Part shown: piece by piece, positions 3,441-64,000 of the stretch
Layout: every line of letters begins with the position of its first letter
Numbering within the stretch: position 1 is the stretch's first letter
Made by a program: the position numbers and the translations under genes
Source: a virus
Virus record (IMG/VR): IMGVR_UViG_3300028043_000001
Location: 52,437 to 116,436 of that record
Length of the DNA stretch: 64,000 nucleotides
Reading direction: 5' to 3' (one strand)
Notes under the pieces: model-generated
Seen by the model: only the letters and a program-made list of their open reading frames with translations
The model's database searches: none
What the model was told of the DNA's origin: nothing

Positions 3441-3444
3441 ATTT

Positions 3445-3636
3445 ATGACACCTATAACTGAGCTTCCCTTCAAGCCGCATGGCTGGTGGCGACGAGTTTG
3501 GCAAACGCTGCTAGTCTTTTTCGGATTGGCGAGCCTTGCAACTGGAGGCCTCCTAAAATATCGTAGGCGCCCGTTGCTGATTTTCACTGCAGCTGTCGTC
3601 GCAGGTGCAGTTTTAGTTTGGTGGGTATGGGAATAA
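3445..3636 (+). CDS. Small two-TM membrane protein
   Basis: Two hydrophobic segments separated by KYRRRP. Confidence 0.5.
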   Translation: MTPITELPFKPHGWWRRVWQTLLVFFGLASLATGGLLKYRRRPLLIFTAAVVAGAVLVWWVWE

Positions 3637-4392: not shown

Positions 4393-4423
4393 AAGGGAGG
4401 ATCTCCGGATCCTCCCTTCATTT
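4393..4423 (+). terminator. Stem-loop, likely intrinsic terminator
   Basis: AAGGGAGGATC-TCCG-GATCCTCCCTT, an 11-bp stem with only a weak U tract. Confidence 0.55.
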
Positions 4424-4439
4424 AAAGGGTTAAGCTAAG

Positions 4440-13331: not shown

Positions 13332-14031
13332 TGGGTGCGTTGTTTTACTTTCGGGGGGTATGGATTCTACAGTGCTAGCTTCTCTGGCAACTCAGAACTT
13401 CGACCGCGTAGTTGCGTTGTCGGTTAACTACGCCCAACGCCATAAGCGTGAATTGGAAGCAGCATCTAAAGTGGCAAAACACCTGAATATCCCCCACACA
13501 GTCTTGGATATTTCAAACATTAACAATCTACTCCAAGGATCGGCTTTGACCTCAAAAGAGGTCGAAGTACCTCACGGCCACTATGCTGCAGACAACATGA
13601 AAATCACTGTTGTCCCAGGAAGGAACACCATCCTTCTTAGCATCGCTTACGGCTTCTGCGTGAGTCTCGGCTTCACGAGCGTATCGTATGCGGCGCACAG
13701 GGGTGATTTTTACCAGTACCCTGACACACGATTTGAGTATGTACAGGCAGTTCAGAAGGTTTTTGAGTTAGGCCATTTCTGGCCCGTCACGTTGTGGACA
13801 CCTTTTCTGGAAACCGATAAAGCAGGAATTTGCAAAATCGGTCTTGAAATTGGTTCCCCCTTCGAGCTCAGCCACACTTGTTATGAGGGAGAAGAGGTCG
13901 CGTGTGCCAAATGCGGCTCATGCGTGGAGCGTATTGAATCCTTTTATCTTAATGAAGCAATCGATCCTATAAGTTACAAAGGGGGTTGGGATCACGCGTT
14001 GCAAAATATCTTCGCAGTGCTCGCTAAATAA
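13318..14031 (+). CDS. queC: 7-cyano-7-deazaguanine synthase
   Basis: LSGGMDS, YAQRH..E, VPGRN, YPDTR, TCY...CAKCGSCVER. Confidence 0.95.
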   Translation: MSTSNGCVVLLSGGMDSTVLASLATQNFDRVVALSVNYAQRHKRELEAASKVAKHLNIPHTVLDISNINNLLQGSALTSKEVEVPHGHYAADNMKITVVPGRNTILLSIAYGFCVSLGFTSVSYAAHRGDFYQYPDTRFEYVQAVQKVFELGHFWPVTLWTPFLETDKAGICKIGLEIGSPFELSHTCYEGEEVACAKCGSCVERIESFYLNEAIDPISYKGGWDHALQNIFAVLAK

Positions 14032-47410: not shown

Positions 47411-47980
47411 ATGCCTTACAATCTTCCGTCTTACGACGTTAATAGGTTGTCGATCGGTCCCTGTATCATCTATCTTGGTGCTGCGGGCACTACGCCCACC
47501 GTTGATGTAGGTGCAGTGGAGTCCGGCGCGACCCTTACGACTACAAGGACGAAAGAGGAAGTCTTTCAGGGTTTCCCGAAGACCTTGATTGCGCAGTTTG
47601 CCACCCAGGAAACCGCTGTTCTTAAAATCAGCGGCATTGAATGGAACGTTAACAACTTGATGTATGCTTTAGGAGCAGGCGTGACCGCTGTCTCTTCCAC
47701 ACAGGAAGTTCTTGACTTTGGCGGACAAATCTCCTTCACCGACTGTGCCCTCAAGTTGGTGCATCAAACGCCTTATGGTTGGACTGTTAACGTCCTGATT
47801 TGGCAGGCTCAAGGTGATGGATCCGTGGAGTTCAATTTCGGTGATACTCATCACAAGATGCCTTATGGCTTCAACGCGATTGTACCGTGGAATAACACCA
47901 CCAGGAACTGCAAAGACTGGGCAGGCAACGTCCTTGCAGAAGGTAAGCAACTGTTTAAGGTGATCGTTGAAAAAGATTAA
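47411..47980 (+). CDS. Major tail (tube) protein
   Basis: IGP..IY.G......DVG....G..L pattern. Position before the chaperones and TMP. Confidence 0.75.
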   Translation: MPYNLPSYDVNRLSIGPCIIYLGAAGTTPTVDVGAVESGATLTTTRTKEEVFQGFPKTLIAQFATQETAVLKISGIEWNVNNLMYALGAGVTAVSSTQEVLDFGGQISFTDCALKLVHQTPYGWTVNVLIWQAQGDGSVEFNFGDTHHKMPYGFNAIVPWNNTTRNCKDWAGNVLAEGKQLFKVIVEKD

Positions 47981-48019: not shown

Positions 48020-48463
48020 ATGTCTGAACAAGAAACCCTTACTATCCGCAATATTGACGGTGACACTCGCCAAGTTAAGACTCGTCTCCCTTGGGGCAAA
48101 GAGCGGCGTATTCTCAAGATTATTGGCGAGGTTGTTTCCCAAATTCCTGAACGTTTGTCCACATTTGATGAATCCCCCGGCATCGCTCTTCTACAGTACT
48201 TAACCACCGAAGCGCCCGAGAAGGTGACGGAAGTGCTAAGTATTATCTTGAATGTACCGCCGGAGCAAGTGGACGAGAATTTTGATGGGGACGCTGTGGT
48301 TGAGTTTGCCGTTCCTTTTCTTACTCACTATGTAGGGAAGTGGAGTAAGCGCCTAGAAAGTGCCCCCGTCGTCGATCTCCTCGGCTCTACTACATCTCTT
48401 ACAGGAATTTCACCTCCTCCTCCCCAACTAGAAGGTGAGCCTAGTACAGAGCTAGATGGATGA
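48020..48463 (+). CDS. Tail assembly chaperone (G-like)
   Basis: Acidic ~150-aa ORF between tube and TMP. GGAGG RBS. Confidence 0.65.
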   Translation: MSEQETLTIRNIDGDTRQVKTRLPWGKERRILKIIGEVVSQIPERLSTFDESPGIALLQYLTTEAPEKVTEVLSIILNVPPEQVDENFDGDAVVEFAVPFLTHYVGKWSKRLESAPVVDLLGSTTSLTGISPPPPQLEGEPSTELDG

Positions 48464-49067
48464 TTGGCGTGATTTCGTTGTTCAGGTCAGGCGGGTACAA
48501 GATTTAAAAGGCCGAGAACACTCGTTCACAGTTCCTCCGTCGTGGAAAACCGAACTGCAGTTCTGGGAGCTTTTCGAGTCTTTTTCGGCCAGCACTTCTA
48601 CTCTGCAGGATCACCTCTCCAATTTTGACCTTGTCGCGGCTGCCGTTGCTCTGGTTCTAGGCATTTCCCTGGAACGTGTCGACGACTTTTCGAGTGAGCA
48701 AATTGAAGGGGTTTTCAACGAGGTCTTTACTCATATTATCCCTAACCCTACCGACGTCGAAGTGGCTGTTACCCAACAAAAAGGGAAAAAAAAGGGTCAA
48801 GAATTTTCTCTTTCCGACGCTTTGGCGATGTTTGGATCTGAGTGTGGTTGGCTACCCGCTGACATTTTGGAGATGCCGCGCAAGCAAGTGTTCTTGCTTG
48901 CGGAGGCAGTTACTCAGTATGTTGCACAGAAAATGAAGTTTCAAGCAGCTATTCATGGTGCCGACATTGAGGGAGGGGGAGCAGGAACTCCTGGAAAGGC
49001 CCAAATTGATAGTGAAGAGTATTGGATGAACTTACAAAGTCAAGGGTTGCCCGTAGAGGTGAGATAA
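48456..49067 (+). CDS. Tail assembly chaperone (G'T-like, paralog of the upstream gene with a T-like extension)
   Basis: N-terminal half resembles 48020. C-terminal GW.P.DILEMP..Q is typical of T segments. Confidence 0.6.
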   Translation: MDDWRDFVVQVRRVQDLKGREHSFTVPPSWKTELQFWELFESFSASTSTLQDHLSNFDLVAAAVALVLGISLERVDDFSSEQIEGVFNEVFTHIIPNPTDVEVAVTQQKGKKKGQEFSLSDALAMFGSECGWLPADILEMPRKQVFLLAEAVTQYVAQKMKFQAAIHGADIEGGGAGTPGKAQIDSEEYWMNLQSQGLPVEVR

Positions 49068-52000
49068 ATGTCAAGGCTTGAGTATTTCTTAAAGATAGAC
49101 ACTAAAGACCTTGATACTGCTTTAAACAAGCTCACACAAGCTGGCAAAGCGTTTGACTCTCTCTCGAGTAAGGGGCGATCGTTTAGTTTGGGTAGCAGTG
49201 TAGAGGCTACTGTAAAGGGCCTTTCCAATATGCAGTATGCCCTAGAAAGACTCGGACCGGTAGTAGACGCACTTAATTCAAAGTATGAAAAATGGGGAGC
49301 CGCAAAATTTCGTCAAGACCCTAGTATTGATCCTCTACGTTTAACTTTCCTCTCTTTAGTGCACCAAATCGAAACAGCTACCACAAAGTATGAGAGATTT
49401 ATTTCGGTTCTAGCACAAACCCCTGCTGCCACTTCTCGTTTTGGGCTAAAGCTTGGAAAACTATTCACAACCGACCCCGAAATTGAAATCAACAAGCTGA
49501 ACAGGGCTTTAACTAGCCTGGAGCAGCGAAAGAAAGTCGGGAAGATCTTGGAAGGTGACTATGAGAAAGAACTTACCAAGCTCACTACCGCCTTAACCAA
49601 GGCGGAAAAAGATTTAGCTTCAGTTGACCTTTCAGTATCAGTACGTGAGCGCCTCAAGGAGGTTGCGGCACATGTCTCAGGTTTAGAAAAATATACCAGG
49701 CTAGTTGAAAAGACAGAAAAGGAGCTCGCGCGCCTAGAGCACTTGCGAGGTACTAAGAAGGGAGCAAAAATCCCTGCTGACGAATTTAAGCAACGCCACG
49801 AGCTGCTTGAAACTCGGCTACGAGACGCTTACGCGGGGGAGGTTTTAGCAAAGCAACGTTACGATTTACTTTCCAAAATTATCGACGTGGGCCCAGAGGC
49901 GGTCAAAATCTTGAAACAGATTGGCGATGGCTACGGAGAAATTGCTACTAAAGTAGGTCAACGCGCCGCAGGGACTTTACCTTCCACCCTCGAATTAGCC
50001 CCTTTGAAATCTCGTGCTGAGCGTTTAGAAAGAGAGTTGACCTCCATAAAAAGGAGAGAAGCGGCGGAACTGAGCCAACCTGCTCCCCCACGAGTGGACC
50101 TCAAGAAGGTAGCAGACCTTGAAAGGCAACGCAGCAAGATGTTAGAATCGCTTGAGCAATCCCAATCATTTCTTACTTTTCCTCCTCTAAATGTAGGAGA
50201 CCGCCCATTCCGCGAAATTTATAAGGAGGAGGTTAGCGAGTATGTAAAGCTTTTAAAGCAGCTCCGTGCAGCCCGCCAGCACGGAGCTGTTACAAGAGAA
50301 GATGTTCTACCTATAATTAGGGGTGAAGAGTTTAACTTCTCTTCTCTTGCCTACCTTCAATCACACCCCAAGAAGATGGGACTACACGAGACACAGCCTG
50401 CTTATCCCGCCATCCTGCGGGAGTGGAAAGAAAGAATTCCTGACATCATCGAAAACCTCAACAGCTTTGTTGGATTCTTGAAAGAAAAACTTCCTGGCCG
50501 TGAATTTATTGAAGTCGCTGCAGGCTCAGGACGCCTCGCGCGAATTTTGAAAGACAAAGGAATCCAAATTCTTGACGCCTCAGATAAATTCGAAGAAGAT
50601 TATTTCGCCGAGGGAGGTGTTGAGCGAGCCAAACAGTTGGGGGTAAAGCAGCGTGACGCAATACAAGCTATTAAGAAGTTTCCCGAGGCTGGATCTGTGC
50701 TTTTGTCGTGGCCCGAGTTTCGGTCTGACCTTGCCGAACGTGTCGCTAAGGCCTTAAAGCCGGGACAGTATCTCACTTATGTTGGCGAAGGTTTGGGAGG
50801 TGCTACTGGAACCGACGAGTTTTTCGCGGCATTAAAGGAGCAATTTGAACTTATCGCAGAACTGCCGTTAAAGACCATTACTGGCATGCGCGACGAAGTC
50901 CAGATTTGGCGGAAAAAAGGTGATGTGAAGGCTCGCGTTCAACAGCTTGAACGCGAGCTCGCTTCGACTCACAAAGAGATTGCACAACTCCAACCTGCTA
51001 TCAAGCCCACAACAACAACTGGAGCTCCACTCTTACCCAGCCCCGAAGGTCAATCTGCATACTATGCCGAAGAGGGTCGAAGATGGGTAGCGGTCGCTTC
51101 GCGTGCTGCATCAAGCCTCTCAGGAGGTTTGATGGGGGGCCTTGATCGCCTACTTGAAAACGTGGATTATAACGCTATTTTTGAGCGCGCACTTGCTGAG
51201 GTGGGTGATCCCCTGCAAGCCGTACGGCTAGCTTCCACCAGGTCAGGGCGATCGAAAGGAGCTGAAGAGAAACTGCAACAAATCCATGACAAACTTCAAG
51301 ACTGGCTTTTGAGTCCCGAACTACTAGATTTATTCAACAAGATTGCATCTGGGTATGGACCGCTCCTTCCTCAGAGTGTGAAAGACGCCTTTAAAGTAAT
51401 GAGAGATCCCCAAACTGGCAAAGTTATTGTGGGTAAGTACGCGAAGTTTTTGCTGGACTTGGAGAAACAAGCTACCGAAATTGTTGACCAGATTGCAGGT
51501 GAGAGTGGGTTGGGAGTAACAGCGAAACCTAAACCTGGGTATGGTTCAACGTTCACCCTCAACACAGAGAAGGAAGCGAGCCAGATCTTTGACGAGATGA
51601 CGAAATTAACTGCTAGGCAAGTTTTCCTCGAATCAATTTTGAAGCATGGACGTAAGGAAAGTGCAGCTGAACTTGAAAGCATCCTGAAAAAACAAGAGGA
51701 GGTATTGACTTTAAAAGAGCAAGACGTTGAAAGGGCCAAAGAAGCTCATGCAGTGGGCACTAAAGCCCATGCCGAAGAGATGCGAAGCCTATCAGCAAAA
51801 CGTGCAGAACTCGGTCGTATATATGCAGCCAAACCCCAAGATCCCCGCGCCCTTGCGGCTTATCGAATGGAAATGGATACAGTCAACGAAAAAATGCAGG
51901 AGTCTAGAAGCAGACATGCCGCCCTAACTTCAGATTTGCAACGAGCTGAAACTGAGTTCCAGAAAACTGAAAAGATTGTTAAGAACTTGGGATTCGCTTA

Positions 52001-55000
52001 TGAGTCAGCCCAAGCTGCCGAAAAACTTGCAGCAAAAGGCCAAGCAGCCGTTCCTCCTGCTTGGATAACCTTTTCTCAGAGGGAACTCAAGGAGGTTAAG
52101 ACGCGATTACAAGAACTCGGCGTTTTGTGGGATACCCTTCGTACTCGCGAGCATCTTGAAATCCTGCCCCCCGCTGAAAGGGTTGGCAGAGATATTATGA
52201 GATCAAAACGGACCACCGTTGCTATACCCTACGACGCAAGCTGGGAACAATTAGCTGAAGATTACCCCGAAGAGTATTTCCAAGAGCTAGGTAAACGTAT
52301 TAGTGATGACGTGAAGATGTCACGTCCTGACCTTTATGAAAGCTTGGGTTTAAAGGAGGACTTTGAGCAACTGGAAGCTAGTGAGGCTCAATCTCAAGCA
52401 ATTGTTAGACGCAGAATGCAAGATTCGGGCCTTACGCCACTAAATGCCTTCCTTACAGGGATCAAAAACGTTCGTGAGCTGTTCACCAGCATGTTTCGTG
52501 AGCCTGGTCATGACCTTGCCTCTCTAAACCAGCTATTAGGGCAATTTGACCGAACTGTGCGGCGTAGCCCCGAAGCTATTTCAGAATTCGATCAAAGGAC
52601 CCAACAAGTATTGTCACATTTAGAGCCCGCAATCGGCGAAGTCACTGGTTACGTTAAGCGTGACTGGTCTGATGCAACCTTAACTATGAGTGCCAAGTTT
52701 CTGGATTTCCTCGATGTTATGAAAGATGTTGATCCCAAATTTCTTGCGCGCGAAAGAAAACAACTAGACGAGTTTTATGGGGCTCTACAGAGGGTTCCGT
52801 TAGCCAGCATTCTTAGCTCGATGAGTAAGGTCAAAGATCTTGCTCTAGAAGGCTTTTATCGTCCAGGGGCCTTAGATGAGGCCCAAGCAGAGCTTTTCAA
52901 GGTTTCCGAAACTTTGAGCTTGACCGGAAAAGATTTTGAAAAGGTGAAAATAAAGGCTTCGGGCCTCGCACAGTCACTAAACACGCAGGTGCTAGATCAA
53001 GCTTTGACTGTTCTCGAAGACGTGTGGCGTTCGCCTGCAAGAGGTGCCCACGCTTTACAAGAAGCAGAAGCGGCGTTTAAGGCCTTCACACATGAGACCG
53101 TGAAGACGACAGAAGGCGCGAAAACTGTATTTAGAGAAGTACCAATTACGCAAATTGAGCCTATTTATCAAGCATGGCGAAAAGTGTATGACGTAGTTGA
53201 GCGTTACCAAAAAAGGGTTCAAGAGGGGGGTGACCAAAAAGAAGGTAAACAATTTTTGCAACGATTATCTGCATTCCCCTTTCTAACCGAAGAAAAGACT
53301 TCCACCCTGGCGAACGTTTTAAAGCTTGCTCCAGATGAAAGTGCGCGGCGGGTACTACTCGAATACGCTAGATGGCTAGGTGGCGACTACGTTGAAGAAA
53401 TTGAAAAGGCTGCCATAAACTTAGATTTGCGCAAAGTTTTTAAGAAAATTGCTGGATCGGCTCCAAAGGGGATCATCGCAGATTTTGAGCCGCAGTTTGC
53501 TGCAGCCTTTCAAGGATTACAGCATGCGTTTGTACAAGCTAAAGAACCTATTGAGGCTATTAACCTTGTACGCAAGTTGGCCCTTGAGATGGGTTTTCTT
53601 GCTAGCAACATCAAAGAAGTAGGGGTTAATGCTGCTGGCATCACAGGGAGTTTAGGTCACCTCGCAAAACTGACTGGCGAAGCCCGTTTTGGGACTTTAA
53701 CCTCTGAGTCAGTTCCTGAGTGGAATAAAATGATCAAGGGACTTAAGGAGTCCACCCTTATTCTTGGTCACGAACACTTACCCGCACTCAAAGCAATTGA
53801 ACAGGCGTGGAATAATACTGGTGACTCCGAAAGAAAGTATTTTGCCTCCATGTTAAAACATAAACGCCTGGGGCGCGAACTTGCCGACCATATGATTGAA
53901 TTTTTTGGTGCGCGTACCTCAAAAGAGCCGCTTGCCTTTGAGGGGTTTCACTTTGAGGAAGTTGCGGGGCTAAAAAAACCTGGTGAGGCTTTTGAGTGGC
54001 TGTTGCAGCAAACTGACGATGTCGTTGGGTTTGTTGAACAGATGAGAGTAATTGGTAAGCAATGGAAGCCCCTTTCGCAGGACGTCATCTTCCCTGGAAG
54101 CCTGGACGTCATCCGTTCTTCCATCTCAAGCATGGGGAGGATTACTGAAAATTGGCTGCCCTGGATAATTGAAACTCTCGCAAAGGAGGGTCCAGGAGCT
54201 ATCCCGATAGCTGCGTACAAGCCGTCCCTTGTAGAACATCTACCCAAACTTAGGGAGAGGATAGCTAAATCTCGTGAATCCGTGGTAGGAGAGGGTACCC
54301 CAATTGAGTCTACTATGCTCACCTCCTTAGACGTCCAAGCCATTAAAATGCAATTGGTTATAAGTTTGTTTGAGAAGTTAAGAAGTGCAATTAGAACTGG
54401 TAAAGTAGAGACAATTGATTGGGGTAAGGAGACGGCGAATGCCTCACAAAAAGCCTCCTCAGCCATCGAAGGAAGTTACCAACATCTCGTTGGAGGATTG
54501 CAAAAGTTTTTACGTGGTGGAGAGCATGTAACTGGAGCTCTCACTGAAATGATGCGCATGCCGTTGGGGCAGGAAGGTGGATTCGGTCTTAAAGCAGTTT
54601 TGAGTAGGCAGTTTGTGGAGTCACTTTCACCAGTACAGATTAGTAAAATTAGTGTAGGGCTAGGAGAGGTAGCAACTCAGGCACCAGAAATTGCTAATGA
54701 AGCTGTCAGAAACTTGTTTTTAACGCGGCTTAGGGAGGCCTCAAAAATCATCGGAACTTATGTTAGGAGCCACGCTTTTGAGATAGACCCTGAAGAACAT
54801 GCAGAAGCCCTCCTAGAGGCAAAAAGTGCCCTGAAAGTTGCTTCGAGCAATTTCATGAAGTATATTCCGAAGACTGTGAGAGAATTGGCAAAGACACCGA
54901 GTCAACTCGAAGAACTCTTCATGCAGCAGATAATCCAGGCCGAAACTGGTATTGTTCCACCAATGACAGTTACAACGCGGGCAACCCACCAGGCTGGCAC

Positions 55001-58000
55001 AAGTGCTAAAAAAGTTGCTACTAGTGCTGAACAGATGTCGGTTGCTTTGAAAGACGTGGCTGAATTCTTTGGAAAGGGAGTTGCCTTTGCAACCTACTGC
55101 GCAGCGGAGAACCGAAAAGGGTTGGTAAAAAATTTGAGCGAGGCCCCCCTAGCCGAGATGTACGAAGGCCCACGTTCACGGAGTTTCGCTGCTCTAGCTC
55201 GTAGCGGCGTCATTCCCCCCGAACAGTTCTTTATGTTTTCAGGGAAGCATGGCTTCGATTCTATCTGGTCTGTGAAAAAGGCGTACGACAAGTATTTGCA
55301 GCCTCAGGAAGTCCCTGAAATGGTTGAAGTTGTTAAAGAGCAGATCCAGAACATTAACCGCGAACGGGCTGAAGCAATCTCGCGTGCCAAAAAGGCAGGG
55401 GAAGAATGGCAACACCTTCCCCAACCTATCGAAGAGATAGTCTATTATGCCCAGGAGTATGCTTTACAGAAGCGGGGTGGACTAGGAACTACTTACCTGC
55501 AGGCAATTAGAGAAGCTGCTGACCAGCTCGGGATTCGTTTACATGAAGTTGCACCTGTGACCTACGATTTAAGGCGAGCCTCAACGAGATTTGAAGGTAG
55601 CTTGACTGACATGGCCGTCAAAGCTGTAGCTGCAAATCGCGCCATGGAGAGAGGAACTGCGGCTACCGAAGAAGTGAACAGAGAGTTTCAACAATATGGT
55701 CTACGTTTTCAACCCTCCGAACGTTTAGGACGTCGTGCCCTCTCACCTTCAGGTTTCCAGGCGATTTCAAAAGAATATCCGACTTCAGATGTTACTTGGT
55801 TTGCGGGAGACGCAAAGTCTTACCTTATGGCTCCTATTGGCACCGCCATTCACGAGGTTGTTCTAAAGAACGTGCTCGGGGCCCTCGTTAAAAGTGTTTT
55901 GAAAGGCAGCAAAGTTGCGGGGGAGCAGCTGCTTAGCCTCCTAAAAGGAACGAGTGCAGAGCCGCCGATTAGTGAGGGGGAGTTAAAGAGACAACTCGAC
56001 ACACAGTTCCGTGAAGCTGTCTCCCAAAAAGGCATGAACGCAGAGGCCCTGATTAAGTCAGCCGGAACCACCATGGATAAAACTCAAGATACCATGCTTG
56101 CAGCAGCACAGAATATACTGGGAAATATGTTTCGCGCTATCGGTCACATAATTGAGGTTGAAGGGGGTGAAAAGTTTTTAGAGTCGTCTGAGGCTTTAGT
56201 GGCAGCAATGAAGTCCAAAGAAATCCGAATTTCGCCAGAGTTTGCTCCCTTAGGTCCTCAGGGAGCGCCCTTGAAGGTGTTGCAAAAAAAGTTTCCACAG
56301 GCGGCATTCCTTATTGAAGAAATTAATCAGGCGTTGGGCCCTGATATGGCAGCTGCCTTTCTCAAGTCCTTTTCAGGCACAATGGACTTATTGGTTCAGG
56401 TAGGAGATCAGGCGAGAATCTTAGACCTAAAAACGACGACATGGGAAGCGAAGCAAAAACACGCAGTGCAGTTGGTTGGGTACCAACGGTTACTTGGTCT
56501 ATTAAGTGATGCAGTTAAAGTTTCAGGTCTAGGCATCATGCCAGGTTTAGATGTAGCAACTTCACCCGAAAAGTGGATAAAATGGATAGACCGCGCGAAA
56601 TTGGAGCCCGCAGTGCGCGACTTTTTTGACTTTCTTATGCAGCCCTTTGTCGACATTCCGCAAGTTAGGGAATATGTTCAAGCTCACCCCAACCTAGCTC
56701 GCTCGATCAAGAATCTCGTCATGAATTATCAGACAAATATTCAGACAGGATTTAAAGATGCCATCAAAGTAGCTCCCCGAATTTCAGTGGATGCCGTCGC
56801 GGAAACTTTACTTCCTGAGGCCCAAGCTAAACCAGTAGAACAGAAGGTATTACAGGATATAAACTTGATAGAGAGGCTCGGGGCGATGCAAGTCGGAGCT
56901 CTTCGACAACTCCGCAAACAAATGGCCCGTGACCAGGAAAAAATTGCAGACGAGTTGAGGGATCTTGGAGGAGGTGCTGGACAAGAATTCACTCCTACAA
57001 CTTCAGGGCTTTTAAAATCTTGGCAAGCCTACGGCGCATTTATAAAAGCTATTGATGCTGAACTAGCTAAGCCTGATGTCCGAAAAACGGCGAAGCGGCC
57101 CATTGCCGAACTTTCAGAGACCACAAAAGCAGATGTGGCTACTTATCTACAAGACCTTGCTGGACTTGAAAAACAAATTCCTGCTTCGATTCAAGAGCTT
57201 ACCCTCTTAAAACTCATGGCTTTAACCAACCAAAAGGATACAATGTCGAAAGCCCTCAGCGAAACTGCAGACACTGTAAAAGAAGGTGAAGGTAAAATTA
57301 CCAATATAGTAGGCGAACTTTTTAAAGAGGTGGGCAAAACTAAAGAAGAGAAACCCGTCCTGCTGAACATTTTCGACGCCATAAACGCAAAGAAATTTCC
57401 CCTCGCTGAGGTAGGGCATGCTTGGGGCGAATATGGCCATGCGATTAGCAGGCAAGGAAAACCAATCGAATCCTTCACTGCGGCCTTAAGTGCTCTACAA
57501 CAAACCGCCCGCCAGTTTATCGGCGGCTTTGCCCAGTACGGTGGGACGGTACCTTTCCTCGATGATCTTATAAAACGGTACAATGAGACTGCCACTGCTG
57601 AAAAGAGGCTAGTACCATTTGGTGAGAAGTGGCAGCAGGGCCGCGCGATTGCGCAAGAGATTGGTGAAACCCAAGCAAATTTAGCAAAGTTAGATCGAAT
57701 GCTGCTCAAGGATCTGCCTGCCGCTGAAGCGCTCGGTGTGGCAGCTGAAAGAGTAGCCTTAGAATCCAAACTTATTGCGTTGGCTAAAGAGCAGTTAGCA
57801 ATTATTGAATATATGTCGGAAGCCTTAAAGAAGGTAGTAACTCAAGAGGATCTACTCAAGGAGGCTCGTGCTCGTAGCGTCGAGGAAGTCAAGAGTCTTG
57901 CTGTAGCGCTTAAGGTAGGCAAAATCCAAGAAGCAACTGCCCTAAGTGGATCCGAAGCGCGGCTTGCAGGTATGGAACCATTAATAGCTGCCCAAGAGCG

Positions 58001-61000
58001 GTTACGAATTTTACTAACTCAAGCCGCCTTCCAAAACCTAGGTGCTACCGGAGTCGTGCCAGGGTTAGGTGAAACTGCATTCGGCTATGGGATTCCAATA
58101 GCCACTTCGGCCGACATCTTAACAAAATTTTTGGGAGCAAACGAAAAAGACTTGCAAATGAGGCTCGAACGTTTTAGGGCCGCCTTTGGCGGAAATTTAA
58201 GCCAATTGATGAAAGATGTTAATGTGTTCAGCGAACTCTCCGGCGTACCTGTATTTGATACTACAATTCTAGAAAAATTAGAGGCGAAACTTGCGAAGGT
58301 TCAAGTTTTGAGGGCTGGTGCAACTGATGATAGGTTCGTTAAACGTGAGGAAGAACTCACGCGTTTACTGGGGACTGAACAGGTTCGAGCGTTAGAGCAC
58401 GTTACTCTTGTTTGGGAAAAACTTGAAAAAGAAAGGGCAAGATACAAAGAAACGGCTCGAGGGATTGAAAAGGAGAAGGCAATTGAGGTTGGCAGAGAGA
58501 ATCTCTCTAAGTTTAGGGCAGATCTTGCAGATTATAATAAAGAAATCGACAACATGTTGAGGATGGGTCGGACGTCCGAAACTCGGTTTGCCAGGCAACA
58601 TGAGGTTGGGAGAATTGTGCAAGAAATTCACAAAGGGATGGCTGAACTAACCCCTCTTTACGGCGAAACCCATTTTGAGCCCCTAGCTAAGGAATTTAAA
58701 GAAGTTTCTGAAGAAGCGCGAAAGACACAAATATATGCCCGCGGTGGCTTGACTCTTTGGGAAAGGTTGACAAACACTGTTAAATCAGCGAGAAATGAAT
58801 TTGCTGACTTATTCTTATATCAAGTACGTTGGTATACCTCGATGCTCATCTTTTGGGGCATTTTTAACAAAATTACCGAAGGGTTCGGGGCTCTTGTAAA
58901 CGCCCAACGAGACATTGAACGCGCAACTATTAACCTCCGTGAGCAATCGGGTGAAGTAGTTGCAAACTACCACCGCCTCGAGTTAATTTCCCGCACTGCT
59001 ATTTTTGGTGCAATGGTACGCTTGGGACTGGATTCTCGGCAGGCAAGTGAAGCTCTTTATCAACTTGGTTCCGCAGGCCTTACTGCAAGAGAAGCACTAG
59101 CCGCAATGGGTCCGGTCACAGATCTTGTTGTAGGCACCCAAGCGGACATGCGCGAAACTGTCAAGACCGTAGCTGGACTGTACAACGTGCTTTCAGGGTC
59201 TGTATCTCAAACTTCCACCGTTTTAGAGGCTGCGGGTTTGCAAATGCAGTCACATTCGCGATTTACTGAAAGTGCCATTGCACAAGCGACCCGCTTCAGG
59301 CAGATTACTGATGTCCTCGCCATGATTTTCCGTGATCACCAAGTTGAAATGTATGAACTGAACTTGGGCTACCAATACTCAATTGCTTCAGCAGATATGG
59401 CTGGTCTTTCTTTCACGGAATTATCGGCAATCTTAGCAGTTCTAAACGATAATATGTTAAAAGGCTCTAAAGCTGGTCGCGCCGTTAATGATATTTTGGT
59501 GGGGCTGGCAAAGCAACCCTACGACGTTCTTGCGAGTTTTCGCGAAATGGCCTTAATGTTAGCCGAAGGAATGCCAAGCAAGGCCCAGCGCATTCGGGCA
59601 GTTGTAGAAGACTGGAACAAGGCGAAGTTTGAAAATAAGACCATTTTTCAGACCCTGGGTGAATTAGCAAAACTTGTCGAAGCTACGGGCATGGAAGTTG
59701 GTGTTTTAGGTCGCACTTTTGAGAACTTTGGGATAGTCGGTGGCCGCGCATTTGCACCTATTATGAAGTATTGGAAAGAAATCGAAATAGAGCAGTTACG
59801 CTTACACCACAGTGCGGCTGGTGTTAGTGAGGTTATGGCAGAACGAATGTCTAACACCATGGAAAGGAATGCCCAGAAGGTCTCCGCATTTATCCAGAAA
59901 TCATTCTATGAATTATTTCTCATGATTCACAACGTTTCTGCCTTTGGCCTTTCAACACTTGCCAAACTTGGCACCTCCGTTTCAGGCTTTTCGGAAAATG
60001 TGCGTAGGGGGTTTGAGACCGATACAGGGGTTTCTTTTTGGGGAAGAATGTTTGAAACCGCCTTGAACTTTTTACCCTTAATACTGTTAGTTGGAGGTAG
60101 TATTGCCTCCTTTGGGGGGCTCGCAACCAACGTCTTTACAAGAGTTGGGGCACGAGCTATTGGAGTGGTTACTTCACTTACCGCTTTAAGAGCCTCTGGA
60201 ATGGGCTTAGTCGGAGTTTTTACAGGAGTTGCGGGAGTCATTGGGAATTTCATTGCCCTACTTTTCACTGCCCCATTTTGGAAGTTTATTGCGGGAGCCG
60301 TGTTAGTCTCATTAGCAATTGGAGGTTTAACCGCACTATTTAGAAAACTCACTATGACTGTTGACGATTTTGCGGCAGAAGCGGAGAAGTCATTTGCTGA
60401 CTTCTCCGAGGACGTTTCGAAGCGCAACCAAAAGATTCAGGAGTCCATTAGCAAGGTATCCACCACCCTAAAGTTGCGGCGCGAAGCTGAAGAAGCCATG
60501 CAAGAGGTTGCAAACAAGGGAGCTAAAGAACCAGTCACTGACGAGCAAGTCGCAAGAGTGCAACGTTATGGCGTAATGGTCGGAGCGTCAAGGGAAGAGC
60601 TTAGCAAAAAAGTTGAAACTGTGGGCGACTTAACAGCATTGTATAACAAGCTCGATCCTTTATATCAAAAGGTTCTCAACGACATGAAGACTGAGGAGTT
60701 TCAACTCGATTTGACTTCTAAAGGGTGGATCAAATACCGCAAGGCTATTGAGGACGCAATGCGTGCTAAACGTGAAGCTGAGGCTGCCGAAAAAAGGTTG
60801 CGGGAGAAACCGCTACCTATTCCACTTGCACCAGGATTCTTTGGAGGAGGGTATATTGAGCCCACAGACGCAGAGTTGAAATCACGCGAAGCGGAGGCCG
60901 CGATGCGGCGCAGAGATGCTGAGAAACAGGAAAAATCTGCGGCAGACGCGGCGCTACAACAGTTTCTTAGCACTATTGTAGGTGCTATGCAGCACGTAGA

Positions 61001-64000
61001 CATTGAAAAACAGGTCCAAGAGGCGGTCAAATTATCCCAGGGGGGAGAGTCACAAAAAGCCAAGGAGAAATTGAAAAACATTTATGCCGATATGATTAAC
61101 CGCATCACAAAGGACCAAGCAGAATTTGACATCCTCGCAGAAAACCTTTTCAAAAAAACTGGAAAAACTCCCGCAGAAGAAACCCAAGAGGTGTATCGCG
61201 ACAAACTAAAGAAGCTTTTAGAAGGCCCCAAGGCCATGGAAGAATTTTTGCTTTACCTTGAAAGAACTCGGGGAGCTGAATTGGGAGTAGAGGCGTCTCG
61301 GAAATCCGCTGAATCTGTACACCAAGATCGATTAAAAACGTTAGATGAAGAAAAGCGGAAGCTGGACATAGAGATTCAACAAATACTGGCAAACCTTGAC
61401 AAAGTTTCGAAGGAGAGGATATTCAAAGAGAAAGAGGTTGAAGCAGCACTAAAAAGGGTGCATGACTTAGAACGCCAAGCTGCCGATATTGAAGAACAAC
61501 GGTACCAAGAAGAGACACGATTTCAGCGTCAACACCGTTTCAAGGGTACTATAGTTTATGAAGAAGCGGAGAAGAGAATAAAAGCTGAAGGGGCGCGGAG
61601 ACGGGAGGAGCGTCACCTCAAAGAAATTCAAGACGATAAGAGGTTGCTTGATGAAAGGTTCAAAGCATTCGAGTCAATGATCGAACACTGGCTGTATGGA
61701 TTGTACCGCTCGTCTGCTGTGCGCATAGATCTTGAAAAGGCTTTGAGTGTAGAAAAATCCAAACAGGTAACTATTGATTTAAGCAAGTATGTAAAAGTGG
61801 TTGGCGGAGCAGACATTTCCAAGCTGTCTCCAGAGTTTGCGGCCGCCCTTGCGCAGCTTGCCAAAGATTTTTATACAATGTTCGGGAAGCCATTGGTAGT
61901 CACTAGCGGGTTTCGCACCGAGGAGTATCAAAGACAACTTCGCGCAGAATTTGAGGCTGGTACAAGAAAGGGGCCGGTTGCTACTGCTGAGTTAAGCAGA
62001 CACCCTAAAGGGGAGGCTGTAGATGTCGACAAAGAAACCATGGTGTTGTTGAGACAAATGGACTTGGCTAGGTACGGCTTGGAAAATTTAGCTCGCATCA
62101 ACGACGAGATCCATATTCAGCGGCAAAAAATGACTAAGGGCGTTGTCATAACTTCGAAGGAGGTAGCTGAGGGAGCGAAGCAAGGTCTGGAAGAGATAGT
62201 CATTTTTCTAGAAGTTTGGGCACCCAAGCAACCACAGCGAGTTAAACAGCGAATTGAACAGCTGTTGGCTGGCTTTAGAAACGTACCTGGGGAGTTTATA
62301 ACGCGCCGCTTAGAAGTTATGGATCGTCTAATGAAAGTTGCAAAAGTTGTTGGAGTTGACCCCGATCAGATTTTCAACCTTTTTTGGGGTCCTGTTGGCA
62401 ATCTTCTCCAGTCCGGTGCTTTTATTCCTGAAGGCATGATCAGAAGATATTTCGAGGCTTTTGGTGAGCGCGTTGACAAAACTCGCTCTGCCTTTATTTC
62501 CGGCCACCAAAAGCGTGAAGAGGCCCAGAAAATCATTCGTTCCTTCTTTGAGATAGAAGAGTATTGGAAGCCCGAAATGCTTCCAAGAATGTTTCGCACT
62601 GTTTCGGTGGTTGCAGAAGCGGCTGGGCTTAGTGGCCGCCGTGTGTATGATATGATGATACAATTTTTCAACCCGGATGCCCTTCGTAAAATTCTCGAGG
62701 GTAATTTAGAAATATCTGCAGAATTTTTCCTGATGTTTCAAGAACAAGCGAAACAGTGGCTGAGTGGCAATATTCCAGTCCGAATGTATAAGACGTTCGA
62801 GTCAGCTCTCAGAGACATGATGCAGTCAGGGGAGATATTTACTACGCGCGCTTTAGACACGTATGCCAAAGCCCTAAAGTCCTTTCCTACAGTAGATTTG
62901 ACGGCGGCCGCTCAGGATTTTGTTAAATACTACCACATGTTGGCGCAGAGGAAGCCCGACTTTGGAGTGAAAGATTTACAAGCAATGATTTCCTATATGT
63001 CACAGTTTGGCGCTACTTCCGAAGAAAAGTGGAAGGCTATCGGTGATATTGCCGAGTCGCGCATCCAAAAAATTCGTAGTGAGTGGAAGAAAGCGGGGAG
63101 TGACCTCCTTGAAGACACTTCCGATATTAAGCAAGGCTTTGAAGCGATGTGGTGGGCAGCTATTAAAGGCCTATCTGATTTTGCTCAAAAGATGCGCAGC
63201 CCCCTCAAGATGCTTTCCGACACAGTCTCGGGTACTTTGGAGTCTATGAGGAGTTCTTTTGAGGAGTATCTCTACGATTCAATATTGCGCCAAAGGAAAC
63301 CATTCCAGGAGTATGTAAATAAGTTTGCACAAGATTTGGCTCGCATGTCATCTAAAAATATTTCCGAAATGGTTTTCGGTGGCCTCTCGCGTTTTTTACT
63401 CAGCGGCTTGGAAAGCTTGTTTGGGATTGTGCAACCAAAAGGGCCTCAACCTGGAATGACGGCTGCTGAGACTCAAAAGGCTGTTACAGATGTACAGAAA
63501 TGGGCTGAAGGTAGAGGGGAAAAAGTCGCGACCCAGGTCTACCAAAAAACCTCAGTGCAGTTAGACGTGCAAAGAAATTCACTCTTAGAACGAATTCTTA
63601 TGGCCATTTCCACCCTGGGTAGAAAACTAGGCGCAAGTACTCCTGAAACGCCAGAAGAACCTTCCATTCCAGAATCCTCCTCTGAGTATCCCGAAGGCTT
63701 TAACCCCACTGAAGCGGGGTATGGAGGCTGGCCTCTTGAGGGTGCAGCTCCCGAGATAACTTCCATGGGAGCCGCTGGGGCAGAAACTACTGGTCTCTTT
63801 GGTGGCATATTAGGCCAAATCGCGTCGTTTGGTTCTTGGATTTGGAGTCTAATTTCACAACTTTTCACCAGCATCGGCGGCATTTTCATGAAGATTCTCA
63901 GCAGCCTTGGAAGTTTATTCGGGTTTGGGATGCATGAAGGTGGACTTGTGTTCAGGCGCTTCCAACTTGGTGGTTGGGGTGCCGGGGCCGGAGGAGGAGG
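49068..64000 (+). CDS. Giant tape-measure protein (at least 4977 aa, 3' truncated) with embedded enzymatic domains
   Basis: ATG 49068 abuts the chaperone stop. The track lists no ORF in this frame, consistent with no stop before the window end, and spot translations are all open. TP901-type TMP core at about 58800-59900 (ASEALYQLGSAG, LNDNMLKGSKAGRA), hydrophobic segments at about 60060-60350. Confidence 0.9.
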   Translation, partial: MSRLEYFLKIDTKDLDTALNKLTQAGKAFDSLSSKGRSFSLGSSVEATVKGLSNMQYALERLGPVVDALNSKYEKWGAAKFRQDPSIDPLRLTFLSLVHQIETATTKYERFISVLAQTPAATSRFGLKLGKLFTTDPEIEINKLNRALTSLEQRKKVGKILEGDYEKELTKLTTALTKAEKDLASVDLSVSVRERLKEVAAHVSGLEKYTRLVEKTEKELARLEHLRGTKKGAKIPADEFKQRHELLETRLRDAYAGEVLAKQRYDLLSKIIDVGPEAVKILKQIGDGYGEIATKVGQRAAGTLPSTLELAPLKSRAERLERELTSIKRREAAELSQPAPPRVDLKKVADLERQRSKMLESLEQSQSFLTFPPLNVGDRPFREIYKEEVSEYVKLLKQLRAARQHGAVTREDVLPIIRGEEFNFSSLAYLQSHPKKMGLHETQPAYPAILREWKERIPDIIENLNSFVGFLKEKLPGREFIEVAAGSGRLARILKDKGIQILDASDKFEEDYFAEGGVERAKQLGVKQRDAIQAIKKFPEAGSVLLSWPEFRSDLAERVAKALKPGQYLTYVGEGLGGATGTDEFFAALKEQFELIAELPLKTITGMRDEVQIWRKKGDVKARVQQLERELASTHKEIAQLQPAIKPTTTTGAPLLPSPEGQSAYYAEEGRRWVAVASRAASSLSGGLMGGLDRLLENVDYNAIFERALAEVGDPLQAVRLASTRSGRSKGAEEKLQQIHDKLQDWLLSPELLDLFNKIASGYGPLLPQSVKDAFKVMRDPQTGKVIVGKYAKFLLDLEKQATEIVDQIAGESGLGVTAKPKPGYGSTFTLNTEKEASQIFDEMTKLTARQVFLESILKHGRKESAAELESILKKQEEVLTLKEQDVERAKEAHAVGTKAHAEEMRSLSAKRAELGRIYAAKPQDPRALAAYRMEMDTVNEKMQESRSRHAALTSDLQRAETEFQKTEKIVKNLGFAYESAQAAEKLAAKGQAAVPPAWITFSQRELKEVKTRLQELGVLWDTLRTREHLEILPPAERVGRDIMRSKRTTVAIPYDASWEQLAEDYPEEYFQELGKRISDDVKMSRPDLYESLGLKEDFEQLEASEAQSQAIVRRRMQDSGLTPLNAFLTGIKNVRELFTSMFREPGHDLASLNQLLGQFDRTVRRSPEAISEFDQRTQQVLSHLEPAIGEVTGYVKRDWSDATLTMSAKFLDFLDVMKDVDPKFLARERKQLDEFYGALQRVPLASILSSMSKVKDLALEGFYRPGALDEAQAELFKVSETLSLTGKDFEKVKIKASGLAQSLNTQVLDQALTVLEDVWRSPARGAHALQEAEAAFKAFTHETVKTTEGAKTVFREVPITQIEPIYQAWRKVYDVVERYQKRVQEGGDQKEGKQFLQRLSAFPFLTEEKTSTLANVLKLAPDESARRVLLEYARWLGGDYVEEIEKAAINLDLRKVFKKIAGSAPKGIIADFEPQFAAAFQGLQHAFVQAKEPIEAINLVRKLALEMGFLASNIKEVGVNAAGITGSLGHLAKLTGEARFGTLTSESVPEWNKMIKGLKESTLILGHEHLPALKAIEQAWNNTGDSERKYFASMLKHKRLGRELADHMIEFFGARTSKEPLAFEGFHFEEVAGLKKPGEAFEWLLQQTDDVVGFVEQMRVIGKQWKPLSQDVIFPGSLDVIRSSISSMGRITENWLPWIIETLAKEGPGAIPIAAYKPSLVEHLPKLRERIAKSRESVVGEGTPIESTMLTSLDVQAIKMQLVISLFEKLRSAIRTGKVETIDWGKETANASQKASSAIEGSYQHLVGGLQKFLRGGEHVTGALTEMMRMPLGQEGGFGLKAVLSRQFVESLSPVQISKISVGLGEVATQAPEIANEAVRNLFLTRLREASKIIGTYVRSHAFEIDPEEHAEALLEAKSALKVASSNFMKYIPKTVRELAKTPSQLEELFMQQIIQAETGIVPPMTVTTRATHQAGTSAKKVATSAEQMSVALKDVAEFFGKGVAFATYCAAENRKGLVKNLSEAPLAEMYEGPRSRSFAALARSGVIPPEQFFMFSGKHGFDSIWSVKKAYDKYLQPQEVPEMVEVVKEQIQNINRERAEAISRAKKAGEEWQHLPQPIEEIVYYAQEYALQKRGGLGTTYLQAIREAADQLGIRLHEVAPVTYDLRRASTRFEGSLTDMAVKAVAANRAMERGTAATEEVNREFQQYGLRFQPSERLGRRALSPSGFQAISKEYPTSDVTWFAGDAKSYLMAPIGTAIHEVVLKNVLGALVKSVLKGSKVAGEQLLSLLKGTSAEPPISEGELKRQLDTQFREAVSQKGMNAEALIKSAGTTMDKTQDTMLAAAQNILGNMFRAIGHIIEVEGGEKFLESSEALVAAMKSKEIRISPEFAPLGPQGAPLKVLQKKFPQAAFLIEEINQALGPDMAAAFLKSFSGTMDLLVQVGDQARILDLKTTTWEAKQKHAVQLVGYQRLLGLLSDAVKVSGLGIMPGLDVATSPEKWIKWIDRAKLEPAVRDFFDFLMQPFVDIPQVREYVQAHPNLARSIKNLVMNYQTNIQTGFKDAIKVAPRISVDAVAETLLPEAQAKPVEQKVLQDINLIERLGAMQVGALRQLRKQMARDQEKIADELRDLGGGAGQEFTPTTSGLLKSWQAYGAFIKAIDAELAKPDVRKTAKRPIAELSETTKADVATYLQDLAGLEKQIPASIQELTLLKLMALTNQKDTMSKALSETADTVKEGEGKITNIVGELFKEVGKTKEEKPVLLNIFDAINAKKFPLAEVGHAWGEYGHAISRQGKPIESFTAALSALQQTARQFIGGFAQYGGTVPFLDDLIKRYNETATAEKRLVPFGEKWQQGRAIAQEIGETQANLAKLDRMLLKDLPAAEALGVAAERVALESKLIALAKEQLAIIEYMSEALKKVVTQEDLLKEARARSVEEVKSLAVALKVGKIQEATALSGSEARLAGMEPLIAAQERLRILLTQAAFQNLGATGVVPGLGETAFGYGIPIATSADILTKFLGANEKDLQMRLERFRAAFGGNLSQLMKDVNVFSELSGVPVFDTTILEKLEAKLAKVQVLRAGATDDRFVKREEELTRLLGTEQVRALEHVTLVWEKLEKERARYKETARGIEKEKAIEVGRENLSKFRADLADYNKEIDNMLRMGRTSETRFARQHEVGRIVQEIHKGMAELTPLYGETHFEPLAKEFKEVSEEARKTQIYARGGLTLWERLTNTVKSARNEFADLFLYQVRWYTSMLIFWGIFNKITEGFGALVNAQRDIERATINLREQSGEVVANYHRLELISRTAIFGAMVRLGLDSRQASEALYQLGSAGLTAREALAAMGPVTDLVVGTQADMRETVKTVAGLYNVLSGSVSQTSTVLEAAGLQMQSHSRFTESAIAQATRFRQITDVLAMIFRDHQVEMYELNLGYQYSIASADMAGLSFTELSAILAVLNDNMLKGSKAGRAVNDILVGLAKQPYDVLASFREMALMLAEGMPSKAQRIRAVVEDWNKAKFENKTIFQTLGELAKLVEATGMEVGVLGRTFENFGIVGGRAFAPIMKYWKEIEIEQLRLHHSAAGVSEVMAERMSNTMERNAQKVSAFIQKSFYELFLMIHNVSAFGLSTLAKLGTSVSGFSENVRRGFETDTGVSFWGRMFETALNFLPLILLVGGSIASFGGLATNVFTRVGARAIGVVTSLTALRASGMGLVGVFTGVAGVIGNFIALLFTAPFWKFIAGAVLVSLAIGGLTALFRKLTMTVDDFAAEAEKSFADFSEDVSKRNQKIQESISKVSTTLKLRREAEEAMQEVANKGAKEPVTDEQVARVQRYGVMVGASREELSKKVETVGDLTALYNKLDPLYQKVLNDMKTEEFQLDLTSKGWIKYRKAIEDAMRAKREAEAAEKRLREKPLPIPLAPGFFGGGYIEPTDAELKSREAEAAMRRRDAEKQEKSAADAALQQFLSTIVGAMQHVDIEKQVQEAVKLSQGGESQKAKEKLKNIYADMINRITKDQAEFDILAENLFKKTGKTPAEETQEVYRDKLKKLLEGPKAMEEFLLYLERTRGAELGVEASRKSAESVHQDRLKTLDEEKRKLDIEIQQILANLDKVSKERIFKEKEVEAALKRVHDLERQAADIEEQRYQEETRFQRQHRFKGTIVYEEAEKRIKAEGARRREERHLKEIQDDKRLLDERFKAFESMIEHWLYGLYRSSAVRIDLEKALSVEKSKQVTIDLSKYVKVVGGADISKLSPEFAAALAQLAKDFYTMFGKPLVVTSGFRTEEYQRQLRAEFEAGTRKGPVATAELSRHPKGEAVDVDKETMVLLRQMDLARYGLENLARINDEIHIQRQKMTKGVVITSKEVAEGAKQGLEEIVIFLEVWAPKQPQRVKQRIEQLLAGFRNVPGEFITRRLEVMDRLMKVAKVVGVDPDQIFNLFWGPVGNLLQSGAFIPEGMIRRYFEAFGERVDKTRSAFISGHQKREEAQKIIRSFFEIEEYWKPEMLPRMFRTVSVVAEAAGLSGRRVYDMMIQFFNPDALRKILEGNLEISAEFFLMFQEQAKQWLSGNIPVRMYKTFESALRDMMQSGEIFTTRALDTYAKALKSFPTVDLTAAAQDFVKYYHMLAQRKPDFGVKDLQAMISYMSQFGATSEEKWKAIGDIAESRIQKIRSEWKKAGSDLLEDTSDIKQGFEAMWWAAIKGLSDFAQKMRSPLKMLSDTVSGTLESMRSSFEEYLYDSILRQRKPFQEYVNKFAQDLARMSSKNISEMVFGGLSRFLLSGLESLFGIVQPKGPQPGMTAAETQKAVTDVQKWAEGRGEKVATQVYQKTSVQLDVQRNSLLERILMAISTLGRKLGASTPETPEEPSIPESSSEYPEGFNPTEAGYGGWPLEGAAPEITSMGAAGAETTGLFGGILGQIASFGSWIWSLISQLFTSIGGIFMKILSSLGSLFGFGMHEGGLVFRRFQLGGWGAGAGGG

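Follow-up and report, generated by a model that had tools for sequence, protein, structure and literature searches.

The 64,000-nucleotide stretch of viral DNA analyzed here (the window) makes up the final 64 kb of the 116,436-bp IMG/VR record IMGVR_UViG_3300028043_000001 (CheckV completeness of ~75%), and its 3′ part is one genuine gene for a giant tape measure protein (TMP) of the TP901 type. The open reading frame (ORF) runs on the + strand from an ATG at 49068 to 63998 and stays open through 4977 codons, up to the window's final base; because the window ends where the record ends, the gene is truncated there by the end of the contig. Two enzyme-type inserts, recognized by sequence comparison, lie in frame in the head-proximal half of the protein and are found only in this phage among those compared. 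The first carries a class I S-adenosylmethionine (SAM)-methyltransferase (MTase) fold, and the second probably carries a RecB/Cas4-like PD-(D/E)XK nuclease domain. A preliminary description, made from the letters of the window, had claimed a stopless ORF of at least 4977 codons for a TMP with additional enzyme-type domains ahead of its core; the ORF is as claimed, and the enzyme-type domains are borne out by the MTase fold and the nuclease motifs. We are highly confident of the anatomy of the protein as described below, and we regard it as moderately probable that the giant TMP would be delivered into the host together with its enzyme inserts. The phage itself is an uncultured freshwater-sediment phage of a small group with TMPs of 4.3-5.2 thousand amino acids (kaa).

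The giant tape measure protein and its scaffold

The TP901-type core lies at amino acids (aa) 3269-3615 (58872..59912; this and all other features of the gene lie on the + strand and are given in window coordinates). TIGR01760 (tape_meas_TP901) matches aa 3269-3615 (32.3 bits; cut-off, 28.8), PF10145 (PhageMin_Tail) matches aa 3320-3494 (43.2 bits with the whole protein, 52.1 bits with a tile; cut-off, 33.2), and four tape-measure PHROGs agree with the identification. The core had been said to begin only after about 3200 residues, and it does so, from aa ~3269-3320.

In what follows, P0001 is the giant TMP of the present phage, labels of the type P0002 denote its relatives, and L0xx labels denote related loci. 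A search with the core region, limited to proteins of 2737-8710 aa (1248 candidates scored), gave 11 giant relatives. Nine of them, at E ≤ 4e-92, are 4256-5207 aa long and have cores 42-65% identical to that of P0001; the two distant ones are 3949 and 3572 aa long. A whole-length word search for giant homologs had returned none, which was a sampling failure, since the core search later gave 11, and IMG/VR queries with single proteins (the C-terminal part, the MTase part, and P0002) returned no close relatives. A size of ~5000 aa is not exceptional, either in the present phage group or beside the TMP of Thermus phage P23-45.

The alignments and profile matches outline a scaffold that is shared from the N to the C terminus: a TMP-like start, an N-block, the TP901 core with hydrophobic segments, a wall-hydrolase slot, a C-block, and a Gly-rich tail. 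The start is represented by aa 3-223 (49074..49736), which match the tape-measure family phrog_24 (E 9.9e-6, profile positions 31-247 of 1151). The family-conserved N-block at aa ~1130-1900 (52455..54767) aligns with five to eight of the 11 relatives; it gave no Pfam match and no PDB profile match (best E 0.35) and contains no DxDxD motif. Behind the core, hydrophobic, transmembrane-like segments occupy aa 3661-3760 (60048..60347; Kyte-Doolittle windows >1.6). The family-conserved C-block at aa ~4400-4800 (62265..63467) aligns with seven to nine of the 11 relatives and matches the TMP PHROGs 1535 and 16823. The whole visible protein has a single cysteine, at aa 2010, which we count in favor of the delivery reading.

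The start of the Gly-rich C-terminal tail (63468..63998) contains 16.9% Gly in the final 177 aa before it is cut by the contig end. In the relatives, these tails are of very different lengths and are punctuated by [F/Y]AxGG motifs, with 4 to 10 per protein in P0004, P0007, P0008, and P0009 (10 in P0007 and 7 in P0008) over the C-terminal ~600-1000 aa. P0001 ends where this region starts, with a first loose motif at aa 4965. One conserved terminal module is present in all nine close relatives and is lost in P0001 only through the contig end. The sequence beyond the last aligned position is 197 aa in P0002, 231 aa in P0010, and 629 aa in P0005, so the full TMP would be at least about 5.17 kaa long, ~5.2 kaa if it ended like P0002 or P0010, and longer if it ended like other relatives. 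The stop codon was not reached, as the covering contig of the independent Logan assembly ends at 63993 and an exact 46-base search of the metagenome contig collection came back empty.

The wall-hydrolase slot sits behind a highly charged stretch that follows the hydrophobic segments, and in P0001 it is filled by a VanY-like M15 peptidoglycan peptidase domain at aa 4249-4356 (61812..62135). PF02557 (VanY) gave 18.3 bits against 25 (E 0.0021) and PF08291 (Peptidase_M15_3) 17.8 bits against 23.2 (E 0.0037), and the endolysin PHROGs 13118, 894, and 2649 match the region with E values of 4e-5 to 8e-4. M15 peptidases bind zinc through H-x-x-G-x-A-x-D and a later H; P0001 has SRHPKGEAVD and DEIH here, and P0009 has a matching SMHGYGLAVD and WH. 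Taken together, the Pfam E values of 0.002-0.004 and the three endolysin PHROGs support VanY-like M15 homology. Of the M15 peptidase that had been placed at ~61790-62121, the zinc motifs and the endolysin matches stand, while both Pfam scores remain below their cut-offs. The occupant of the slot differs between relatives, being SLT in P0002-P0006, M23 in P0007, P0008, and P0010, and M15 here and apparently in P0009, which aligns through the region. TMPs with embedded cell-wall hydrolases are known, for example, T5 pb2 and that of mycobacteriophage TM4. P0001 resembles them in having a wall hydrolase behind the core, at a site that in this group is exchangeable with SLT or M23, but it differs from them in its two extra domains ahead of the core, which are of nucleic-acid or SAM-enzyme type and not muralytic.

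Candidate enzyme inserts ahead of the core

According to BLAST maps, the blocks common to most relatives are aa ~1130-1900, ~2700-3900, and ~4400-4800. Insert 1 (aa 250-641, 49815..50990) and insert 2 (aa 1951-2694, 54918..57149) lie outside them and appear to be lineage specific. The closest relative, P0002, is collinear on either side of both inserts and has only ~65 aa in place of insert 1 and ~118 aa in place of insert 2. Neither insert is shared by any of the 11 family proteins or the 20 related loci, and neither has a paralog in its own record. Their GC contents are 0.487 (insert 1) and 0.482 (insert 2), compared with 0.465-0.469 elsewhere in the gene. That closely syntenic phages do without the inserts points to a recent, modular gain of cargo. 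Exchange of cassettes among homologous TMPs, which had been predicted as a check, is seen in the swap of M15, SLT, and M23 and in the two inserts present only here. Cassettes bounded by [F/Y]AxGG joints were considered and rejected, since the motifs are absent at the flanks of both inserts and are clustered in the C-terminal tails of the relatives. An intein reading was likewise set aside: the general Pfam scans found no Hint or intein family, and no further search for inteins was made.

Within insert 1, aa ~464-616 (50457..50915) match phrog_19090 with an E value of 4.3e-12, and with the structural model the assignment of this segment to a class I SAM-methyltransferase fold, in the divergent family phrog_19090, can be taken as settled. 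AlphaFold2 (AF2) predicted alternating strands and helices, in keeping with the Rossmann-like seven-strand fold of class I MTases, with a pLDDT of 80.3 and a pTM of 0.76 from an alignment of eight sequences, namely, the window segment and IMG/VR loci only; from the single MTase sequence it gave an unusable model (pLDDT of 38.8). Foldseek against the PDB returned at least 500 matches to the model at E ≤ 0.001 with a TM-score of ~0.5, and among the matches listed all are SAM-dependent MTases, including sugar C-, halide, UbiG, tRNA m1A, protein N-terminal, and other types. The SAM-methyltransferase-like fold proposed at ~50400-50920 was accordingly found at ~50457-50915.

By tblastn, homologs of the MTase domain were found in 21 phage records, mostly of jumbo phages, with E values down to 1e-12. 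They are free proteins of ~200-230 aa, several of which are annotated as class I SAM methyltransferase. Goslar gp111 is an example; the gp111-like proteins are 27-34% identical to the domain (E 1e-10 to 1e-12) and have the same motifs, but they stand alone, whereas the domain here is embedded in a TMP. Class I MTases are characterized by a GxGxG motif I and by an acidic residue that follows β2. In P0001 these are represented by EVAAGSGRLA and ILDASD, which fall in alignment columns where G, G, A, and D are invariant among four jumbo-phage homologs. A-x-D, SWP, and GxGGxTG motifs are common to the domain and its homologs, the latter two being invariant. The domain does not belong to the DNA methylases of the DPPY type. 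A word search limited to the MTase segment and to proteins 115-368 aa long gave no match.

Insert 2 contains a probable RecB/Cas4-like PD-(D/E)XK domain at aa ~2220-2510 (55725..56597; we infer the outer bounds). PF12705 (PDDEXK_1), which has a cut-off of 22 bits, matches aa 2405-2478; its score is 24.0 bits with a 500-aa tile, 21.9 bits when the phage's own record is searched, and 15.5 bits over the whole protein. The region also matches the Cas4-like phrog_1706 (E 8.8e-5) and the exonuclease phrog_298 (E 6.2e-4). Nucleases of the RecB/Cas4 type are marked by G-x-h-D, h-h-D-h-K, and QxxxY in this order and spacing, and P0001 has GTMD at 2437-2440, ILDLK at 2451-2455, and QLVGY at 2468-2472, which places the core of the motif set at aa 2437-2472. 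A partial motif of this kind occurs by chance at four other places in ~50,000 residues of the relatives, so the motif counts only together with the hidden Markov model (HMM) matches. Cas4 also has Fe-S cluster cysteines. With one cysteine in the whole protein, there can be no Cas4 Fe-S cluster, and the domain would not be Cas4 proper but at most a cysteine-free RecB-like domain. From profile matches and motifs combined, we consider a real PD-(D/E)XK domain in insert 2 likely. The nuclease had been placed at ~55735-56600; the motif set and the PHROGs agree with this, and PF12705 is borderline at its cut-off.

Homologs of insert 2 itself were sought in two collections. With aa 1701-2700, phmmer against 1.84 billion representatives found only P0002, through the flanking aa 1713-1937, and tblastn with aa 1951-2600 against 50,697 phage records found nothing. 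A match of aa 2322-2435 to the subtilase-type PDB chain 2iy9_A (phmmer E 0.072 with the whole protein and 0.0016 with the segment) lies outside the nuclease motif, was seen by no other tool, and is attributed to chance.

A DUF6884-like domain had also been proposed at ~55077-55550, and here the family model gave no support. PF21818 (DUF6884) had no match at E ≤ 10 in the record (one candidate scored), and the Pfam scan of tiles at E ≤ 5 did not find it either. The only lead to a possible DUF6884-like region at aa 1990-2200 (55035..55667) came from a feature search of the ESM Atlas, in which DUF6884 clusters ranked first (0.87, 184 of 256 shared features) with a recognition value of 2013, below the usual 2300. 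A YaaA/DpdC-like reading of aa ~2004-2161 was rejected because PF03883 had no match at E ≤ 10.

Delivery into the host and alternative explanations

The TMP of phage 80alpha, according to a preprint (10.1101/2024.12.10.627806), is a trimer. Its N termini lie at the neck, where they adjoin the tail completion protein and the end of the DNA, whereas its C termini lie at the tip, at Tal; it is probably ejected with the DNA as a "pilot" protein and is often seen fragmented. In the explanation that we favor, P0001 would likewise form an extended oligomer in the tail lumen, with the C terminus at the tip and the N terminus beside the DNA end. During infection it would be expelled ahead of the DNA, the M15 domain aiding the crossing of peptidoglycan and the hydrophobic segments forming a membrane conduit. 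By analogy with 80alpha, the N-terminal half with the MTase and the nuclease would exit last, directly ahead of the DNA. Nucleic acid, whether phage DNA ends, host DNA, or a defense target, could then be acted on by the injected enzymes before phage gene expression; the nuclease could resect the genome end as it enters, process it, or attack the DNA of the host, and the MTase could modify an early target. Delivery, the presence of the N-terminal part in virions, activity, and substrates are all parts of this explanation that we infer from the analysis.

The closest precedent is the 5,002-aa TMP gp96 of Thermus phage P23-45, the N-terminal ~1200 residues of which constitute a virion RNA polymerase responsible for pre-early transcription, and this N-terminal enzyme part is reported in virions (PMC10770324). 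We confirmed the length of 5002 aa in NC_009803. Like gp96 and its counterparts in P74-26, G20c, and TSP4 (Chaban et al. 2024), P0001 is a giant TMP of ~5000 aa with a nucleic-acid enzyme in its N-terminal part, ahead of the membrane and metallopeptidase features of the TMP, and in both cases the enzyme is proposed to be delivered with the DNA before phage gene expression. Neither the ~5000-aa size nor an N-terminal nucleic-acid enzyme on a TMP is therefore new, and the virion RNA polymerase, as a direct experimental precedent, makes the idea of a TMP-delivered nucleic-acid enzyme plausible. Unlike gp96, however, P0001 carries an MTase fold and a probable PD-(D/E)XK nuclease as cargo that is lineage specific and not conserved in its group, and no significant similarity between the two proteins was found by BLAST or with HMMs of five family blocks. 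A P23-45-type RNA polymerase in the N-terminal region was rejected: DxDxD is absent from the N-terminal extension of all 12 family proteins, which also lack significant similarity to gp96 residues 1-1200, and the only two occurrences of DxDxD in the family, in P0008 and P0009, lie after the core.

Two further systems invite comparison. Polyvalent proteins also combine unrelated enzyme domains, including methylases and nucleases, on one giant polypeptide proposed to enter the host together with the DNA, but the phage examples were proposed to be packaged in the capsid, and "tape measure" has 0 occurrences in the main text of the article (Iyer et al. 2017, PMC5512222). Pfam scans of the visible 4977 aa, with the C terminus lying beyond the contig, detected none of the polyvalent hub or processing domains (MPTase, SNF2 ATPase, N6A methylase, ArdC-N, and ParB type). 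In the Sle1 effectors, too, a TMP-derived scaffold is a reconfigurable carrier, and a tail-like tube ejects the functional modules that it bears (Nagakubo et al. 2026, PMC13277306). In contrast to P0001, a phage ruler with N-terminal inserts, Sle1 is cargo of a contractile injection system in Actinobacteria and has its modules as C-terminal domains. The literature covered, mostly at the level of abstracts and with subscription journals outside, did not describe a methyltransferase or PD-(D/E)XK domain in any TMP.

Several observations weigh against the favored explanation. The 3′ end of the gene is missing. The MTase domain matched no Pfam MTase family even at E ≤ 5 in the tile scan, and four of its homologs stay below the Pfam cut-offs as well (19.6-22.9 bits against 27 for Methyltransf_23). 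For the nuclease, the PF12705 scores (15.5, 21.9, and 24.0) straddle the cut-off of 22, phmmer of the region against PDB sequences found no nuclease, and insert 2 has no detectable homolog, so that conservation of its catalytic residues has no comparison set. Three copies of globular domains of 15-35 kDa may not fit the lumen of the tail tube, although the same problem exists for the accepted case of P23-45. Finally, in five further giant TMP ORFs from the related loci, the N-terminal extensions (six tiles) yielded no credible Pfam enzyme domain, so enzyme cargo would be an exception and not a general trait of the group.

It has to be considered, then, whether the inserts are passive passengers, i.e., genes or gene fragments captured in frame as length or spacer, catalytically irrelevant and perhaps never present in the cytoplasm. 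The TMPs of this group evolve fast and tolerate large indels: the TMP is only 22-37% identical to its relatives, far less than the products of the adjacent syntenic genes (78-84% for the tube-like protein and 56-61% for the glycosyltransferase). Each insert is present in one genome only, so there is no demonstrable purifying selection, and the relatives of the MTase are ordinary stand-alone genes. Nevertheless, the MTase keeps motif I, the acidic residue after β2, and the invariant SWP and GxGGxTG and folds confidently in AF2, the nuclease retains all residues of the D...(D/E)XK...QxxxY set, and the inserts are open across 392 and 744 codons with a GC content like that of the rest of the gene. 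We consider this reading unlikely, though not to be neglected.

Another reading, to which we give little weight, places the N-terminal ~2700-3200 residues outside the mature ruler. They would be processed off or would act in the producing cell, in assembly or late DNA metabolism, and the C-terminal ~2000 residues would measure the tail and be ejected. The recognizable TMP core and all canonical TMP features do lie in the last ~1750 residues, the fragmentation described for 80alpha in the preprint (10.1101/2024.12.10.627806) would be in line with processing, and an HExxH motif occurs in the C-terminal tails of some relatives. However, the first 220 aa resemble a TMP N terminus (phrog_24), the long N-terminal extension is retained in nine of nine close relatives, and in P23-45 the corresponding enzyme part is reported in virions (PMC10770324). 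Moreover, no Pfam peptidase was recognized at the HExxH of P0003 and P0006, and the visible part of P0001 has neither an HExxH nor any processing peptidase.

That a chimera or a sequencing error in what is, after all, a metagenome assembly joined separate genes in one frame is very improbable, because a second assembler gave the same sequence, all four insert junctions lie inside single contigs, chance cannot yield a 4977-codon open frame in DNA of 46-48% GC, and collinear giant ORFs exist on more than 10 independent contigs. The phage sequence is present in three freshwater-sediment metagenome runs, which may be the source of the record itself. Independent Logan contigs (run X2) cover 49000-63993 at 100% identity and an even depth of ~48. 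One contig (49000-51610) bridges both borders of insert 1 (~49815 and ~50990), and the other (51581-63993) bridges both borders of insert 2 (~54918 and ~57149). The break between them, at 51581-51610, could count in favor of an artifact; the depth is 47.7 and 48.6 on either side of it. The identical second assembly, the even depth, and the four bridged junctions together make a chimera very unlikely, and neither an in-frame stop nor a chimera, which had been named as refuting findings, was found in 49068-63998. At 51581-51610 the contigs meet in a k-mer overlap, and the minor branch of depth 4.6 (main path ~48) that departs from it suggests that the sample also contains a low-abundance variant of the TMP gene.

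Before 2024, TMPs were viewed as rulers and channel formers with wall hydrolases as their sole enzymatic add-ons, and P23-45 added an RNA polymerase fusion in one lineage. The present phage adds a second, unrelated giant-TMP lineage, one member of which appears to have gained MTase-fold and RecB-like nuclease-type inserts in the head-proximal half. If delivery is true, TMPs would join the capsid-packaged polyvalent proteins as carriers of premade early effectors, which would bear on phage-host arms races, on the evasion of TMP-sensing defense, and on engineered tails for protein delivery. The family is also a natural set of 4.3-5.2-kaa rulers on which to test that TMP length sets tail length.

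A wider interpretation, which we put forward as quite doubtful, is that the TMP is a general evolvable injection platform whose head-proximal half takes up whole enzymes in frame, so that they enter just ahead of the DNA. In a phage with a 7-deazaguanine genome, the nuclease might, from the very start of infection, hit unmodified DNA of the host or a competitor or process the genome end, and the MTase might modify its target before transcription, a counter-defense arsenal parallel to that of the capsid-packaged polyvalent proteins. Such modification would, speculatively, permit the nuclease to discriminate self from nonself DNA. The record has a clear QueC gene at 13336-13947 (PF06508, 207 bits), which fits a 7-deazaguanine pathway, and on this reading the genome would probably be 7-deazaguanine modified. 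The canonical TGT/DpdA family PF01702 had no match in the record at E ≤ 0.01, a search that a divergent phage DpdA could escape.

Related loci and neighboring tail genes

Thirteen related loci were found in IMG/VR, and metagenome and genome collections provided a few more. The complete stop-to-stop TMP frames among the 13 are 6418, 4678 (twice), 4606, 4303, 3493, 3432 (twice), and 2897 aa long; four loci have truncated TMP frames, and one locus is on a 155.6-kb contig. The 6418-aa frame (L019:479-19735) has ~3175 aa ahead of the core that are unrelated to the N-terminal part of P0001 and have no Pfam match. In the C-terminal tails of P0003 (aa 4183), P0006 (aa 4584), and P0008 (aa 4960), a shared HExxH module of ~150 aa lies between [F/Y]AxGG joints; it could be a zincin-type processing peptidase. 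The equivalent part of P0001 would lie past the end of the contig.

The labels of the metagenome-assembled genomes of the relatives name a Methanomethylicaceae archaeon, Brevinema andersonii, and a Nanoarchaeota archaeon (P0002, P0006/L029, and L030 being filed under such labels); these are mutually inconsistent, and we took them as probable binning noise. The peptidoglycan hydrolase domains suggest a bacterial host. No match to the sheath family PF04984 was found in the record, a 75%-complete fragment, and on this incomplete fragment its absence suggests that the tail is probably noncontractile.

Upstream of the TMP gene, the order is head-tail adaptor, glycosyltransferase (GT2 plus TPR), tube-like Ig protein, and two small overlapping ORFs. 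Adaptor, tube-like protein, small ORFs, and TMP are kept in this order in four related loci, where the identities of tube and chaperone proteins are likewise positional. The Ig-domain protein of 189 aa (47411..47980, + strand; phrog_2175, E 2.4e-10) shares 78-84% identity with its positional counterpart in L015, L016, L017, and L020 and, judged by position only, is the probable major tail tube protein. The two overlapping ORFs of 147 and 203 aa that follow (48020..49067, + strand) have no Pfam or PHROG match and are 34-54% identical to their counterparts in the same four loci; their position would fit tail assembly chaperones. The overlap measures 8 nt, and the second ORF, in the +1 frame relative to the first, has an ATG of its own. 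The glycosyltransferase of 805 aa (43798-46215; GT2 81 bits, plus TPR) lies within the neck/tail module and is found at the same position in the relatives (56-61% identical); virion proteins may be its substrates. Three loci have, some 4 kb downstream of their TMP gene, a second, diverged tube-like Ig protein that is 33-39% identical (L015:26139-26693, L016:20871-21422, and L017:23364-23915).

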